Part shown: positions 3,980 to 58,924 of the stretch, piece after piece | Layout: the number at the start of each line of letters is the position of its first letter | How positions within the stretch are numbered: the stretch's first letter is position 1 | Assembly (NCBI GenBank): GCA_036517175.1 | Contig: DATDXQ010000002.1 | Coordinates: 1 to 62,164 of the forward strand | DNA length: 62,164 nt | Origin: Minisyncoccota bacterium | GTDB taxonomy: Bacteria > Patescibacteriota > Minisyncoccia > 2-02-FULL-40-12 > IGHO2-01-FULL-4-A | Direction of reading: 5' to 3' | The notes under the pieces: generated by a model | What the model saw: the letters and a program-made list of their open reading frames with translations, nothing else | Databases searched by the model: none | Told to the model about the DNA's origin: nothing | Position numbers and translations under genes: made by a program

Positions 3980-5017
3980 ATGATAAAAGTTGCGATCAAT
4001 GGATTCGGAAGAATTGGAAGAATATTTTTCAGACAAGCGCTCAACCAATCAGATTTGGAGGTTGTAGCAATCAACGACCTGGGTTCACCGGAAAATTTGG
4101 CGTACTTGCTTAAATACGATACGGTCTATGGCCGTTATGATAAGGAAGTAGGGGTTAGTGGCAATAAATTAGTCGTGGGACCTGCTTCGCACGAGGCTAC
4201 GCAGGACGGAAAGCACGAGGTACTCGTACTTTCCGAAAAAGATCCGGCAGCTCTACCGTGGAAAGAACTTGGAGTAGATATAGTAATAGAATCCACTGGT
4301 GTTTTTGATTCCAAAGAAAAAGCCATGCCTCACATTACAGCCGGAGCGAAACATGTAATCATAACCGCTCCCACAAAGGATGATATAACTCCGACCATGA
4401 CACCCGGATTGATGGATTTGTCTGACAGTTCAGAAAAAATAACTTCTAATGCATCTTGCACAACTAATGCTGTCAATCCAGTTATGGCGATCATGATGGC
4501 AAATCCAGGCATAAAAAAAGCACTTCTTACTACAATTCACTCTTATACAGCTACTCAGGGACTTGTTGATGGGCCTGACAAGCACGGAGATTTTCGTCGA
4601 GCACGTGCAGCAGCACAAAACATAGTACCCTCAACTACTGGGGCCGCAGTGGCCACTTTCAAAGTTTTACCAAAGTTGATCGGCAAATTTGACGGTATTG
4701 CGCTTCGCGTACCGGTTATTTCAGGCTCTCTAATTGATATAACTTTTGTTGCCAGCCGCTCTACGTCAGTCGAAGAGATAAATAATATTTTCAGAGAAGC
4801 AGCTACCAAGCCGGAATGGCAGGGTATATTAACTGTAACCGAAGACCCGATAGTATCTAGCGACATCCTTAAGAACCCACATGGATCAATAATAGATCCT
4901 GCTCTCACAAGAGTTGTTGATGGAGATTTGGTAAAAGTATTTTCTTGGTATGATAATGAATGGGGCTACTGTGCCATGTTATTGAGACACATTCTTGAAG
5001 TAGCAAAAATAATTTAA
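3980..5017 (+). CDS. gap: Glyceraldehyde-3-phosphate dehydrogenase
   Basis: INGFGRIGR NAD-binding motif, active-site SNASCTTN, and C-terminal WYDNEWGY. Confidence 0.9.
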   Translation: MIKVAINGFGRIGRIFFRQALNQSDLEVVAINDLGSPENLAYLLKYDTVYGRYDKEVGVSGNKLVVGPASHEATQDGKHEVLVLSEKDPAALPWKELGVDIVIESTGVFDSKEKAMPHITAGAKHVIITAPTKDDITPTMTPGLMDLSDSSEKITSNASCTTNAVNPVMAIMMANPGIKKALLTTIHSYTATQGLVDGPDKHGDFRRARAAAQNIVPSTTGAAVATFKVLPKLIGKFDGIALRVPVISGSLIDITFVASRSTSVEEINNIFREAATKPEWQGILTVTEDPIVSSDILKNPHGSIIDPALTRVVDGDLVKVFSWYDNEWGYCAMLLRHILEVAKII

Positions 5018-5308: not shown

Positions 5309-6226
5309 ATGCTTCATCTACATGAAAGTAAAATAAAAGAATTGGAGGAAAAGGCAAATCAGGCTCGCCAGCTTTTAATTGAGATGCTGGTTGAAGCGGG
5401 GAGTGGACACACGGCAGGACCATTGGGCATGGCCGATGTATTCACGGCTTTTTATTTTCATATCCTCAACCACGATCCGGCCAATCCTGAATGGGAAGAC
5501 CGGGACAGACTAATACTATCCAATGGCCACATCACGCCCATACGCTATGCTCTTATGGCAATGTCCGGTTATTTTCCAACAGAAGAATTAAAAACTCTGC
5601 GCAAGTTTGGCACAAGATTACAGGGACACCCCGAACGAGAACGTCTGCCCGGCGTTGAGACAACTTCCGGTCCTCTGGGCTCGGGCTTAGGTCAGGCCTG
5701 TGGTATTGCTTATGGGGCACGTATGTCCGCCAAGGGCGGATCCGCCTCCGACGGAGATACACTAAAGTTCCGCACCTATTGTTTTATGTCCGACGGCGAA
5801 CACGATTCAGGTGTTTTGTGGGAATCGGTCCTATTTGCCGGCAAAAACAAACTGTCTAACCTGACGGGGCTAATCGATCGCAACAATATACAGATAGACG
5901 GGATGACGGAAAACATAATGCCACTTGAACCGCTCAAAGAAAAATATGAGGCATTTGGTTGGCATGTTTTGGATATTGACGGCCATAACTTTGAAGAAAT
6001 AGCTGATGCCGTTGAGCAAGCCAAAGCAATTTACGAAAAACCGACAGTTATTATTTCACACAATATTCCGGGGAAGGGAATCAAAGAAATTGAGTTCGAT
6101 TATCGTTGGCACGGTAGCCCACCAGGAGCAGGCCCAGAAGATGTTTTCAAGAAAGATGAACAAAGTAAGAAATTTTTGGAAGAATTACGGACTCTAGGAG
6201 GTAAGCTAGAAAGTGAGCATCAATAA
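5309..6226 (+). CDS. Transketolase, N-terminal subunit
   Basis: GSGHTAGPLGMADV and ..ILSNGH.. TPP-binding motifs. The ATG at 5309 is preferred over the TTG at 5300. Confidence 0.85.
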   Translation: MLHLHESKIKELEEKANQARQLLIEMLVEAGSGHTAGPLGMADVFTAFYFHILNHDPANPEWEDRDRLILSNGHITPIRYALMAMSGYFPTEELKTLRKFGTRLQGHPERERLPGVETTSGPLGSGLGQACGIAYGARMSAKGGSASDGDTLKFRTYCFMSDGEHDSGVLWESVLFAGKNKLSNLTGLIDRNNIQIDGMTENIMPLEPLKEKYEAFGWHVLDIDGHNFEEIADAVEQAKAIYEKPTVIISHNIPGKGIKEIEFDYRWHGSPPGAGPEDVFKKDEQSKKFLEELRTLGGKLESEHQ

Positions 6227-8243: not shown

Positions 8244-8351
8244 CAAATCAAGGATCCTCGATTTTTCTATCCCGCCCAAAGAACGAGGATGAAAAATCGG
8301 GAGAATGGGAGTTGGGTCAATTAAGGAGTCGGTTAGAAAAGTAGTCGTTAG

Positions 8352-9830: not shown

Positions 9831-9980
9831 CAAATATAAGACAATTGATTGTCTTATATCAGGAATCGGGCGGCGGAGCTTATGATTTTTTGCATTTGGC
9901 AAAAAATCTTGCGAGCCGGTGGCTAGACAAAATTTTAGGAATAAAATTTTAGTCGAAGCCGATTCCTGGTGCGCCCACAA
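9831..9980 (+). other. Structured 'module D' plus a second copy of the tRNA-Ile 3' end
   Basis: Three hairpins (9836-9857, 9884-9908, and 9927-9953 with a GGAA loop) and the conserved GGAGC and GCGAGCCGGTGGCTAG blocks. The 22-nt direct repeat CCGATTCCTGGTGCGCCCACAA occurs at 9812-9833 and 9959-9980. The module is homologous to 51129-51286. Confidence 0.45.
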
Positions 9981-10018: not shown

Positions 10019-10178
10019 TTCCGATTTACATCCAATAATAAAATTGAGTAATCGAGAATCCTCGATGGCTACTGGCGGGCCGTTAGCTCAGCTGGTAGAG
10101 CGCCTCATTTGCAATGAGGAGGTCACCGGTTCGAGTCCGGTACGGTCCACACTTGCGGCCCGCCAGTAGCCATCGGGA
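10019..10178 (+). other. 160-nt cassette inserted at anticodon position 35/36 of the outer tRNA-Ala and carrying an intact tRNA-Ala
   Basis: Starts TTCCGATTT and ends TCGGGA. A 19-bp perfect inverted repeat (10063-10081 / 10157-10175) brackets the inner tRNA. The arms are homologous to the cassette at 58624-58771. Confidence 0.5.
10077..10149 (+). tRNA. tRNA-Ala (anticodon TGC)
   Basis: Acceptor GGGCCGT/ACGGTCC with the G3:U70 identity pair. Anticodon arm CCTCA-TTTGCAA-TGAGG and T-arm ACCGG-TTCGAGT-CCGGT. Confidence 0.9.
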
Positions 10179-46566: not shown

Positions 46567-46573
46567 ATTTATA

Positions 46574-57125: not shown

Positions 57126-57211
57126 GATATCATAAATTTTTATCATCAGCTTGAAGCTGGTGTTTTATTTTAAAATCAAAAGGACCCAAGTTTGGGTCCT
57201 TTTGATTGTTG

Positions 57212-57283
57212 TGGGCGGTATAGGATTCGAACCTATGACCCTCTCAACGTCAATGAGATGCTCTACCACTGAGCTAACCGCCC
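57212..57283 (-). tRNA. tRNA-Val (anticodon GAC)
   Basis: Acceptor GGGCGGT/ACCGCCC, anticodon loop TTGACGT, T-arm ATAGG-TTCGAAT-CCTAT. Confidence 0.9.
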
Positions 57284-57817: not shown

Positions 57818-58549
57818 TTAATTTTCTTGTTTTGGCAAGTCTTTTAAAAAGTCATCAAGTTTTGCTGGTAGATCGATCTCTACGCTGATTGCCATACCGG
57901 AGGGCGAAGTAAACGAAAGTTTATTGGCATGTAAAAACATACGACCAAGCTCGGGTGGACATACGGCACGTTTGCCGCTGTAAATTGGATCGCATACTAT
58001 TGGGTAACCCATGGTTTTTGCGTGGACTCTCAATTGGTGGGTGCGGCCTGTTAATGGTCTGAATTCAATGAGGGAATAGTCATTAAATTTTTGTAAAACC
58101 TTGAACTCAGTTATTGCAGATTTCTCTTCAAGATTTTTTTTGCCTTTTATTTTAGTACTTTGTTTTGAGCCGAGTTTACCAAGAGGAATGTCTATTGTGC
58201 CGGAGGATTCCCTTACAATCCCATAAACCAAAGCAAGATAAGTTTTTTTTATTTTTCTTTCCTTGAAAATATTTTTCAGGTAGTTAAAAGAAGACTGGTT
58301 CTTGGCTATCAACAAAAGTCCTGATGTTTCCCTGTCTAAGCGATGAACTATGCCAGGTCTGAGATCTGTCCAGACCCCAACACTATCGCCATAGTTATCC
58401 CGTATTGTAGAAATTTCGGGATGTTTTTCTAGTACCCAACTTACAACACTTTCGCTTTTGTCTTGTCTATTTACCGGATGTGTTAAAAGACCTGAGGGCT
58501 TGTCTATAATTAAAAAATCATCATCTTCGTAAACAATTGGAATGTTCAT
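57818..58549 (-). CDS. RluA-family pseudouridine synthase
   Basis: Catalytic [12 protein letters not shown] and ..HQLRVH. Confidence 0.85.
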
Positions 58550-58623
58550 GGTGGGCGCTGAAGGGATCGAATTGAATTGTTTCAGTTCAACCCTATTTGA
58601 TAAATATTTAAGTTTACTTGGTG
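58549..58623 (-). pseudogene. Outer tRNA-Val-like fragment, nt 36 to CCA (degenerate, with a 19-nt hairpin in the T-loop)
   Basis: The minus strand reads CACCAAGTA.. ..TAGGG[TTGAACTGAAACAATTCAA]TTCGATCCCTTCAGCGCCCACCA. The terminal CCA overlaps the rluA-family ATG. Confidence 0.45.
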
Positions 58624-58771
58624 TCCCGTGCAGAGTGGACGGTATAGGATTCGAACCTATGACCTACTCGGTGTAAACGAGTCGCTCTAACCAACTGAGC
58701 TAACCGTCCACTCTGCACGGGATTGCGATTTGTAACCATGCTCGTTTCACTGCGTTTGGACAAATCGGGAA
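58624..58771 (-). other. 148-nt cassette inserted at anticodon position 35/36 of the outer tRNA and carrying an intact tRNA-Val(TAC)
   Basis: Starts TTCCCGATTT and ends CACGGGA. A 19-bp inverted repeat (58625-58643 / 58703-58721) extends the inner acceptor stem. The arms are homologous to 10019-10178. Confidence 0.5.
58636..58709 (-). tRNA. tRNA-Val (anticodon TAC)
   Basis: Acceptor GGACGGT/ACCGTCC, anticodon arm ACTCG-TTTACAC-CGAGT, T-arm ATAGG-TTCGAAT-CCTAT. Confidence 0.9.
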
Positions 58772-58836
58772 TAAACGAGTCGCTTAACCAACTGCCCGCC
58801 AATGGCGGGTCAGCCCCTGGCTGAAGCGAAGCGCGC
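58772..58836 (-). pseudogene. Outer tRNA-Val-like fragment, nt 1-35, with 'module U' at position 12/13
   Basis: The minus strand reads GCGCGCTTCGCT, then [TCAGCC-AGG-GGCTGA CCCGCC-ATT-GGCGGG], then CAGTTGGTTAAGCGACTCGTTTA. Its acceptor half GCGCGCT is complementary (6/7) to AGCGCCC in the 3' fragment at 58553-58559. Confidence 0.5.
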
Positions 58837-58848
58837 TACTTCTTATTC

Positions 58849-58924
58849 TGGTGGGCATGCCTGGATTCGAACCAGGGACCTGTCGCTTATAAGACGACTG
58901 CTCTAACCGCTGAGCTACATGCCC
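58849..58924 (-). tRNA. tRNA-Ile (anticodon TAT), CCA encoded
   Basis: Acceptor GGGCATG/CATGCCC, anticodon arm GTCGT-CTTATAA-GCGAC, T-arm CCTGG-TTCGAAT-CCAGG. Confidence 0.8.

Follow-up and report, generated by a model that had tools for sequence, protein, structure and literature searches.

The window analyzed here, a 62,164-nucleotide stretch (62 kb) of the genome of a Minisyncoccota bacterium (assembly GCA_036517175.1, contig DATDXQ010000002.1), contains at positions 58549–58836 of the minus strand an intact tRNA-Val(UAC) gene lodged between two halves of another tRNA-Val(UAC) gene. The outer gene carries further inserts, and two of them, including the one that holds the intact gene, are members of dispersed repeat families with copies outside tRNA genes as well. 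We put at about 60% the probability that hairpin-forming mobile DNA entered the tRNA loops and that the native Val gene was rescued by a tRNA borne on one of these elements. This reading draws on the locus itself and on its comparison with contig stretches from relatives and metagenome assemblies (labeled L001–L228). The locus and its two neighbors are laid out as follows, in the direction of reading from the outer 5' end.

58825–58836, minus strand: nucleotides 1–12 of the outer tRNA-Val(UAC), GCGCGCTTCGCT, comprising the acceptor 5' strand GCGCGCT and nucleotides 8–12
58795–58824, minus strand: insert 1, a 30-nt double-hairpin repeat of family 'A' after nucleotide 12, TCAGCCAGGGGCTGACCCGCCATTGGCGGG, with the layout TCAGCC-AGG-GGCTGA-CCCGCC-ATT-GGCGGG from 58824 to 58795
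58772–58794, minus strand: outer nucleotides 13–35, from the D-loop to A35, CAGTTGGTTAAGCGACTCGTTTA, with one base deleted in the D-stem 3' strand
58624–58771, minus strand: insert 2, the whole 148-nt cassette of family 'C', between nucleotides 35 and 36
58723–58771, minus strand: first part of insert 2, hairpin H1 of the 'C' element, TTCCCGATTTGT...ACAAATCGCAA, which reads TTCC-CGATTTGT...ACAAATCG-CAA
58710–58722, minus strand: insert 2, 5' arm of hairpin H2, TCCCGTGCAGAGT, the perfect complement of 58624–58635
58636–58709, minus strand: inner intact tRNA-Val(UAC) in the H2 loop, the presumed working gene (ARAGORN; Rfam tRNA, 74.9 bits)
58624–58635, minus strand: insert 2, 3' arm of H2, CTCTGCACGGGA, and end of the cassette
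58615–58623, minus strand: outer nucleotides 36–44, resuming at C36, CACCAAGTA, with a G-to-A change that breaks one anticodon-stem pair
58598–58614, minus strand: insert 3, AT-rich, about 17 nt, in the variable region according to the ARAGORN reconstruction
58589–58597, minus strand: end of the outer variable region, T-stem 5' strand and T54-T55, AATAGGGTT
58570–58588, minus strand: insert 4, a T-loop hairpin of 19 nt, placed at 55|56 in this layout
58549–58569, minus strand: outer nucleotides 56–76 including an encoded CCA, CGATCCCTTCAGCGCCCACCA, in which A76 is the A of the rluA ATG
57818–58549, minus strand: rluA, an RluA-family pseudouridine synthase (PF00849), the conserved downstream neighbor that fixes synteny
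58849–58924, minus strand: tRNA-Ile(UAU), the conserved upstream neighbor, ending 12 nt ahead of the outer gene

The two H2 arms, TCCCGTGCAGAG(T) and (A)CTCTGCACGGGA, are fully complementary and prolong the acceptor stem of the inner tRNA, which is thus flanked by a perfect 12-bp inverted repeat, with T(-1) paired to A73. The outer acceptor halves, which as RNA would read 5' GCGCGCU... ...AGCGCCCACCA 3', form six of seven pairs, the mismatch being C2.C71, and the outer CCA overlaps the rluA ATG by one base (the window reads CAGCGCCCACCATGAAC). A sequence-only reading of this DNA had already described the minus-strand course from the acceptor GCGCGCT through the 30-nt palindrome at 12/13, nucleotides 13–35 and the 148-nt cassette to the resumption at C36, as well as the intact inner gene, the 6/7 complementarity of the outer acceptor halves and the overlap of CCA with the rluA start, and all of these features were recovered. 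It had counted three insertions in the outer gene, a number that now rises to four: ARAGORN calls the outer gene as tRNA-Val(tac) only when all four inserts are deleted, the AT-rich segment 58614–58598 included, and calls no tRNA when the three named inserts alone are removed. The T-arm hairpin reported by that reading is real, although its assignment to 53/54 is not fixed, the two T residues making 53|54, 54|55 and 55|56 equally possible. This 19-nt hairpin was seen only at the Val locus and in L001, and a search for a second copy of the AT-rich insert 3 found none. At permissive thresholds, Rfam returned only tRNA matches and noise at the Val, Ala/Ile and Arg loci of the window, leaving the inserts uncovered, and a consensus scan of the cassette detected no promoter on the strand that encodes the tRNA.

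Judged by synteny and sequence likeness, the outer gene is the native tRNA-Val(UAC) ortholog and not a paralog. An uninterrupted tRNA-Val(UAC) follows tRNA-Ile(UAU) in five relatives (L002, L221/L222, L223, L225, and L227) after a gap of a few bases (223 nt in L221), and it stands directly ahead of rluA in L002, L221/L222, L223, and L227. The order Ile(tat)-Val(tac) is kept in the relatives with contigs long enough to show it (L002, L003, L221, L223, L224, L225, and L227), and it includes a tRNA-Ile with a UAU anticodon, which we take to be uncommon in bacteria. The RluA protein of the window (PF00849) has homologs from Patescibacteria and Candidatus Yanofskybacteria, which puts the window within Patescibacteria and near the latter group, and the window opens with the 3' end of a bacterial 16S gene. 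A separate scan with patterns from an RluA alignment relied on universal motifs, and its 80 loci (L004–L083) stem from distant bacteria, although a few contigs of the Candidate Phyla Radiation (CPR) among them were of use for the comparison. In L221, whose RluA is 71% identical, the native gene reads GCGCGCCCACCATGCAA and its CCA overlaps the ATG exactly as in the window, so that the overlap represents the ancestral geometry rather than a product of rearrangement. Stripped of its inserts, the outer gene finds its best match in the native Val(UAC) of L227 (64/74), the acceptor 3' strand, AGCGCCC, being identical. The sequence-only reading had taken the two outer fragments for a single former gene, which is borne out by this match and by the uninterrupted genes of the five relatives, where the empty site it envisaged is found. 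Its further proposal of insertion into a pre-existing paralog stands as regards the pre-existing gene and falls as regards the paralogy.

Relative to the L227 ortholog, whose nucleotides 1–12 read GGGCGCTTAGCT, the outer gene shows G2C, which creates the C2.C71 mismatch, together with A9C, a 1-base deletion in the D-stem, a G40A change that breaks an anticodon-stem pair, and a weakened T-stem. Joined without its inserts, it would form a tRNA mismatched at C2.C71 and at a C.A pair of the anticodon stem, with no more than 3 bp in the D-stem and 4 bp in the T-stem. Structure-breaking changes in the outer copy thus coexist with an intact copy of the same anticodon, as in a pseudogene that has been replaced, and a pseudogene is what the outer gene most likely is.

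The locus is also present in L001, a contig of a 98%-identical strain assembled independently from another sample (ERZ27254756), which holds the same inner cassette, right-hand junction, and outer 3' fragment. The two sequences differ at 20 positions over 1361 nt, with no difference in 111 nt of the inner cassette and two in 71 nt of the outer fragment, including a change from CCA to CAA. A chimeric metagenome contig, misjoined at repeated tRNA sequence, could mimic such nesting, since the sources of the homologs suggest a metagenome assembly, the inner and outer genes share about 30 nt, and tRNA cores are repeated. With an independent assembly sharing the structure while differing at those 20 positions, and with the same layout recurring in assemblies from JGI, ENA, and NCBI, the probability of such an artefact is close to negligible. 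As a separate observation, 19 of the 20 differences fall within 58376–58607 (230 nt running from the outer 3' fragment through the initial third of rluA), and the rest of the comparison, about 1100 nt, contains one; the divergent segment looks like a recombination tract.

The families to which the first two inserts belong could be followed well beyond this locus. The 'C' family, represented here by the anticodon-loop cassette, consists of palindromic double hairpins whose ends, TCCCGAT...ATCGGGA, are kept while the stems covary. Copies lie in the window at 8255–8302, 10019–10178, and 58624–58771, and also in L004, L161, L168, and L177; elsewhere the element is found empty, at about 54–86 bp. 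An empty copy at L177:13190–13243 reads TCCCGATTCTGATTCAGAATCGAGGA-TCCTCGATTTCGTGAAGCGAAATCGGGA, and another near position 6810 of L168 shares its H1 stem and CAATCCCG linker with the window Val cassette and has its H2 closed by a CGAA tetraloop. A third, in L004 (Saccharibacteria), occupies the D-loop of a Val 5' fragment, GCGCGCTTAGCTCAGTTG, ahead of an intact Val(UAC) gene. The only window copy outside tRNA genes is the intergenic hairpin TCC(T)CG...CGGGA at 8255–8302 (TCCTCGATTTTTC...GAAAAATCGGGA). Each of the H1 stems (TTTGT, TTTAC, AAAAT, TTCTGA, TTTCG, and TTTTTC) is matched by its exact complement, save for a 1-nt bulge in the Ala copy. Similarity between arms is high for window Val and L168 (score 36), window Ala and L177 (31), L004 and L177 (36), and L004 and L161 (24), each score being reached by none of 300 shuffles. 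The Val and Ala cassette arms compared directly give a local score of 14, which 67 of 300 shuffles reach and which is not significant. The likeness of the Val to the Ala locus noticed previously therefore stands for the 35|36 break, whereas for the arms it does not hold directly; membership of both cassettes in one family is supported through intermediate copies in other contigs. A scan for hairpins footed by TCCCG...CGGGA gave 42 hits against 1.2 in shuffled sequence, a count that includes both strands, overlapping spans, and a related family.

As expected of miniature palindromic repeats, comparable to miniature inverted-repeat transposable elements or to the hairpin-forming doublets of repetitive extragenic palindromic sequences (REP doublets, or REPINs), the elements occur as dispersed copies and have conserved hairpins. 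A fixed tetra- or pentanucleotide 5' target of the IS200/IS605 type was not found, the 5' flanks being TTTA, TTTG, GTTG, and AATA for 'C' and GCT, GTT, TTA, CTC, and TTT for 'A'. Target-site duplications were absent from the Val, Ala, and L004 'C' copies and from the tRNA and 16S 'A' copies that were read. The related family TCCCGTTAGAAGT... shows 4-nt target duplications. Nested elements of that family, TCCCGTTAGAAGT...ACTTCTAACGGGA, occur within rluA itself (4001–4996) in a Yanofskybacteria genome, at L224:4096–4307; the insertion lies at ...ACGCA|TCCCGTG..., in the conserved THPVN motif, with a 4-nt duplication CGCA, and the protein as called has 331 residues against about 243. Other copies, in L114, L148, and at L224:949, have the 4-nt duplications TGAA, TGTA, and CTCG. 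A scan of IMG/VR viral contigs for the patterns of 'A', 'C', and a third element, 'B', described below, yielded no more than chance hits, which lay in coding sequences of GC-rich phages.

The 'A' family, to which insert 1 belongs, follows the pattern TCAGCC-NNN-GGCTGA-CCCGCC-NNN-GGCGGG, present three times in the window against 0.08 copies expected. A pattern scan of metagenome contigs located it in at least 118 metagenome stretches, from which 107 unique copies were examined. The unit is exactly 30 nt long and its second stem covaries (CCCGCC/GGCGGG against CCCACC/GGTGGG). The majority of the 107 copies are intergenic, and some lie between inverted flanks, such as GCAGACTTTT[A]AGTCTGC, which looks like insertion into the loop of a hairpin. 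The two remaining window copies follow nucleotides 1–12 of tRNA-Lys (46622–46593) and of tRNA-Arg (51443–51414), in both cases behind an exact copy of these nucleotides that lies just upstream of the intact gene. Further copies occupy tRNA D-loops in L150, L155, L201, L174, L175, L182, and L128, and a tRNA T-loop, on the opposite strand, in L122/L213. In 13% of 'A' copies, compared with 0.4% of controls, 12 nt or more of the left flank are repeated directly within 200 nt downstream, and nearly all of these are tRNA or rRNA cases. Outside the Val locus, each tRNA copy that bears 'A' ends 4–25 nt past the repeat and is followed by an intact copy. Because the bearing copies are truncated and an intact copy stands behind them, 'A' is not a spliced intron; its distribution is rather that expected of a small mobile or dispersed DNA, and the essential RNA genes that harbor it are always backed by an intact copy.

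Three individual sites illustrate the range of such arrangements. At 46567–46640 (minus strand), an exact copy of tRNA-Lys(CUU) nucleotides 1–12 with about 8 nt of leader is followed by 'A', a degenerate D-loop, an AT-rich spacer, and the intact tRNA-Lys, and no outer 3' part lies downstream. At L115:3148–3350, the start of the 16S rRNA gene is present as two truncated copies in tandem ahead of the intact one, and 'A' sits in this 5' end flanked by AGAGTTT and GATCCTGG, the same pattern as at tRNA genes. At L006:5670–5897 (Saccharibacteria), a 5' copy of tRNA-Ile(GAU) extending to nucleotide 37 ahead of the intact gene carries in its D-loop a different, 22-nt double hairpin, CCCC-AAA-GGGG-CCCC-TTCG-GGGG, and other small double-hairpin families therefore act likewise.

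The nested layout itself recurs in other tRNA genes. In the window tRNA-Ala locus, outer nucleotides 1–35 are followed by a cassette at about 10019–10178 that contains an intact tRNA-Ala(UGC), and the outer gene resumes at C36; its 3' part has a further 20-nt hairpin insert and acceptor mismatches. In L115, a tRNA-Ile(GAU) locus comprises outer nucleotides 1–35, 38 nt, an intact tRNA, another 38 nt, and outer nucleotides 36–76, with the two flanks pairing together; the inner and outer cores are identical at 59 of 59 positions, and the acceptor stems differ. L161 shows a tRNA-Glu(UUC) piece up to nucleotide 34 or 35, a 'C'-type arm, and an intact tRNA-Glu, the arm having TCCCGA, the loop motif G(C/T)GAAACGAG, and ATCCCGT in common with the window Val arm. 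L169 presents the remaining side of such a structure, with an intact tRNA-Ala gene, the hairpin CCCGCC-TTG-GGCGGG, and the outer gene from nucleotide 35 or 36, with a large T-loop insert. The break between nucleotides 35 and 36 is exact in the three unambiguous cases (Val TTTA|CAC, Ala TTTG|CAA, and L115 CTGA|TAA), although the local sequences differ. In all cases (Val, Ala, Ile, and Glu) the anticodon of the cargo equals that of the interrupted gene, a match that fits replacement, which needs it, whereas an intron does not.

Five of the ten window tRNA genes (Ile-GAU, Ala, Lys, Arg, and Val-UAC) have outer fragments. Intact tRNAs preceded by 5' fragments also bear long inverted repeats that prolong the acceptor stem, of 14 bp for tRNA-Pro in L132 and 12 bp for tRNA-Thr in L159. 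The frequency of partial tRNA copies in CPR compared with other contigs gave p = 0.19–0.37, against a control of only 15 non-CPR tRNAs. The window tRNA-Arg(UCG) locus, at 51130–51460 on the minus strand, has a three-loop layout like that of Val: outer nucleotides 1–12, 'A', a degenerate D-arm, the intact tRNA-Arg at 51286–51358, a degenerate 3' part, the T-loop element 'B', and nucleotides 56–76. Here the displaced outer 3' end encodes CCA and the intact gene does not.

'B' is a structured insert of 110–170 nt, invariably bordered on one side by an intact tRNA and on the other by a duplicated 3' piece starting at C56. About nine copies were seen, at 9832–9958 (plus strand) and about 51150–51285 (minus strand) in the window, at L228:4590–4766, L003:6078–6225, and L002:4269–4391 and 5698–5868, and in L130, L016, and L032. 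They adjoin Arg, Ile, Leu, and Gly genes, and probably Ser and His genes, in several CPR lineages. Shared motifs run in the order GAGAA-YGCCGGARC, hairpin, GYGAGS, hairpin, and CGAAGC, with a nearly identical hairpin, GCAAGCCAACYGCTTGGCTTGC, in two cases, and one stretch is complementary to the 3' strand of the T-stem in whichever tRNA the element accompanies. The 3' piece is identical at 19 of 19 positions to the tRNA of each genome, and the element has no Rfam match. 'B' could be a naked phage-type attachment site (attP), a mobile element that targets the T-loop, or a tRNA-like RNA with a function of its own. In GC-rich DNA, a loose regular expression for 'B' proved too unspecific to give a usable result.

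The regularity of the break invites an explanation at the RNA level, in which the outer gene would be functional, its inserts would be new bacterial introns removed from the transcript, and the inner tRNA would be freed by RNase P and RNase Z. The inserts do lie in three cloverleaf loops, position 35|36 is kept in spite of differing junction sequences, the whole locus folds very stably (-116.7 kcal/mol, z = -8.3), the outer acceptor halves keep six of their seven pairs, and a lenient scan draws 4-bp 'central helices' at some junctions. Nevertheless, no full bulge-helix-bulge was found at the four Val inserts or the Ala cassette, even with G.U pairs and junction sliding allowed; the best candidate, at insert 'A' (4/4, 2/2, 1/2), needs G.U pairing and competes with the stem of the insert itself. 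The inserts have no Rfam intron or ribozyme match, and the joined outer tRNA would still be defective at 2:71 and in the anticodon stem, D-stem, and T-stem, with its CCA lost in L001. After RNase P and RNase Z had acted, the halves would still bear about 60 nt and 12 nt of intron, and the spliced product would merely repeat the inner anticodon, with no gain. Elsewhere, 'A' occurs in truncated tRNA pieces and in antisense orientation. Group I introns have a conserved catalytic core, P3–P9, and are usually 200 nt or more in length; no group I hit was obtained from Rfam even at E up to 10, and only about 74 nt of the insert is non-tRNA. The group I rule (5' exon U, intron G) could be accommodated at Val with a 1-base slide and is impossible at Ala (TTTG|TTCC, GGGA|CAAT). 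Taken together, these observations make functional introns very improbable.

Site-specific recombination offers a different route to the same arrangement, either through a tiny tRNA-bearing circle or through two successive integrative elements, with the outer halves comparable to left and right attachment sites (attL and attR). Anticodon loops and T-loops are reportedly classical crossover sites for integrases, those of the tyrosine type recombining in this way at tRNA genes. Behind many of the tRNAs in these contigs stands a 3' duplicate that begins at C56, which is the usual attachment signature, and at the Arg locus it is the displaced 3' piece that keeps the CCA. When the cassette ends are abutted, as at the junction of a would-be circle (CGGGATTCCCG; ...GCACGGGA|TTCCCGATTT...), they read as a perfect palindrome, CGGGA-T-TCCCG, which resembles a recombinase core site and, as far as sequence goes, would fit a circular intermediate. 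Such recombination should however leave a shared core, and the junctions have none: TTTA|TTCC against GGGA|CACC at Val and TTTG|TTCC against GGGA|CAAT at Ala, with no common block of 2 nt or more at Val, Ala, or L115. The element comprises just 148 bp and no integrase gene adjoins it, the neighbors being a HAD hydrolase and rluA; empty 'C' members sit in non-tRNA DNA; and the outer halves occur once each, in a nested order that departs from the usual 3' duplication. This account is accordingly unlikely.

The composition of the inner tRNA bears on how cargo and target came to match. On alignment, the inner gene is a mosaic, in which a core like that of the outer gene is joined to ends like those of the resident tRNA-Val(GAC) (57211–57283). 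Its nucleotides 1–12 match Val(GAC) at 11 of 12 positions, and its nucleotides 44–73 at 28 of 30, including an identical run of 25 nt, GGTCATAGGTTCGAATCCTATACCG. Its nucleotides 13–43 match the outer gene at 30 of 32 positions and Val(GAC) at 22 of 32, in agreement with the near-identity of outer nucleotides 13–35 to the inner gene noted previously. All differences between the inner gene and the native Val(UAC) of L227 lie in acceptor-stem or T-stem pairs and are compensatory. This mosaic, together with the identical core and differing acceptor stems of L115 Ile, suggests gene conversion among the cargo, the flanking halves, and the neighboring isoacceptor, which may be how cargo comes to match its target. 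Alternatively, the Val(UAC) of a donor lineage may already have had this make-up.

A mosaic of two resident genes is also what local repair or replication could yield, by fold-back priming from the acceptor stem and template switching, with the hairpins as secondary passengers. In Val, L132 Pro, and L159 Thr, the 3' arm complements the 5' leader exactly, with a pair between position -1 and the discriminator base, and the excess of direct repeats flanking 'A', with breakpoints 4–25 nt past the repeat, points the same way. Such by-products would leave unexplained the TCCCG...CGGGA ends and the H1 module that are common to contigs of other phyla, as well as the repeated 35|36 position, and the inverted repeat of the Ala cassette does not prolong the acceptor stem. 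For these reasons, the fold-back account is quite unlikely.

The reading in terms of mobile hairpin DNA would imply the following order of events at the Val locus. A 148-bp 'C' member would have entered between nucleotides 35 and 36, destroying the gene and at the same time bringing a working copy of the same isoacceptor; the insertion would have been tolerated because the element supplies a working tRNA. The redundant outer halves would then have decayed and collected further loop inserts, namely 'A' in the D-loop and the 19-bp hairpin in the T-loop, and the outer 3' end would have stayed put because it abuts the rluA start codon. The inserts would have traveled as DNA, with structure guiding them to the tips of hairpins in the target DNA and tRNA loops as favored sites. 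It is possible, although the case is tentative and falls short of even odds, that these cassettes represent a new class of selfish element in CPR bacteria, one that carries a whole tRNA in a hairpin loop, inserts in a structure-guided manner at 35|36 of a gene with the same anticodon, and replaces it. Gene conversion may retarget the cargo, which would explain why the inner core resembles the outer gene and the acceptor stem does not.

Several observations weigh against this scenario. The absence of target-site duplications and of a conserved target means that it does not fit characterized transposition chemistry, and a Pfam scan of ten open reading frames (ORFs), nine of them in the window and one in L221, found no transposase or recombinase. 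A loaded cassette was not seen at a second site, so that mobility is deduced from family membership. The exact 35|36 break in three tRNAs of different sequence could reflect an RNA-level event on the folded tRNA. The comparison of decay with L001 amounts to two substitutions, both inside the divergent tract 58376–58607, and a further Val(UAC) gene may lie beyond the 62 kb seen. Finally, two species have both retained T-loop elements of type 'B' at their orthologous tRNA-Arg locus, with stems that covary, which hints that 'B' is maintained or functional rather than junk.

Compared with known systems, the elements are best grouped with miniature palindromic mobile DNA, with a substantial chance that they form a class of their own. 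They resemble REP sequences and REPINs in being short, non-coding, palindromic hairpin repeats with many dispersed copies, covarying stems, and short end motifs that are kept. It has been speculated that REPINs containing host-useful DNA would gain an advantage (Bertels & Rainey 2011, PMC3116915), and the loaded hairpin described here would be a case of this kind. REPINs differ in being extragenic and tied to a REP-associated tyrosine transposase (RAYT) and a GTAG head, neither of which was seen here. To our knowledge, REPINs neither enter tRNA genes nor carry a tRNA. Rickettsia palindromic elements, of 100–150 bp, reportedly insert inside genes, RNA genes included, without killing the host. 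They share with the present elements the habit of palindromic selfish DNA residing in genes, as also seen in the TCCCG-ended family lying in frame in the L224 rluA; they differ in being tolerated as translated sequence or in permissive loops, whereas here the gene is destroyed and replaced by the cargo. Very small dispersed repeats are said to occur in cyanobacteria, and double-hairpin elements in Allomyces mitochondrial DNA. Like the elements described here, these are (double-)hairpin units of 20–80 nt without target duplication, often inserted into hairpin tips and into each other, and the 30-nt 'A' closely fits their description, although lineages and sequences differ. We know of no tRNA cargo or tRNA gene replacement for these hairpin elements.

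Integrative elements that target tRNA genes also disrupt the gene, carry sequence for a working copy, and leave a displaced fragment, at the anticodon loop or T-loop. They differ in that they span kilobases, encode an integrase, duplicate only the 3' part, and share a core at both junctions; the present element has 148 bp and places a whole tRNA between two non-duplicated halves. The presence of tRNA gene fragments derived from integrated elements is documented (PMC9897764). Archaeal multi-intron, split, and permuted tRNA genes, the subject of two reviews (PMC4090602, PMC4390854), offer a likeness in the several interruptions in the D-arm, anticodon loop, and T-arm and in the related inserts across different tRNAs. 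Archaeal introns rely on the bulge-helix-bulge and a splicing endonuclease, and their exons make the only functional tRNA, whereas the present locus has no such motif, a bacterial host, damaged exons, and a separate intact tRNA. A search of the literature on tRNA introns and insertions in Patescibacteria and CPR found no description of the phenomenon, and none of a palindromic element below 200 bp with a whole tRNA at a fixed anticodon-loop site of the cognate gene.

If the proposed reading is correct, essential tRNA genes of streamlined, uncultured bacteria have been repeatedly destroyed and replaced by tiny non-coding elements that supply a tRNA of their own; should the cassettes indeed form a new class of selfish element, replacements borne on elements would make up a large proportion of the tRNA genes of such genomes. 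An element of about 150 bp that encodes no protein would thereby have found a new, safe route for selfish DNA into an essential gene, the closest parallel being integrative elements that restore the 3' end of a tRNA, and tRNA genes could be turned over and become mosaic by the same route. The constancy of the 35|36 junction points to structure-specific recognition, and pursuing it might reveal a transposition or recombination activity, on DNA or RNA, that is new and specific for hairpins. Such loci also constitute an annotation trap, as tRNA finders report the inner gene alone and gene callers run through the debris, for example in L223.

Gene calls of this kind were encountered around the tRNA-Ile(UAU) and tRNA-Val(UAC) genes of two relatives. 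A 318-residue 'RluA' call at L223:3986–4942 starts upstream of both tRNA genes, and a 70-residue ORF was called between them at L221:1748–1960; both are probably annotation artefacts.

A conserved protein adjoins the tRNA-Gly gene of the window. Encoded at 54107–54781 on the minus strand, it has 224 residues, an N-terminal helix-turn-helix, and an invariant YWGEGDK motif; it is 55–88% identical across many Yanofskybacteria, and its length is the same in nearly all of them. The motif, in the form LYWGEGDK here and in an L221 paralog, raised the idea of a free-standing homing endonuclease beside tRNA genes, which found no support: Pfam, NCBIfam, and PHROGs recognized only the N-terminal helix-turn-helix, and the AlphaFold model, although confident (predicted local distance difference test, pLDDT, 88.7), had no significant match in the PDB (best E 0.02, template modeling score, TM, ≤0.28). 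A paralog with 28% identity to this protein is encoded at L221:982–1650, where it adjoins tRNA-Ile(UAU).

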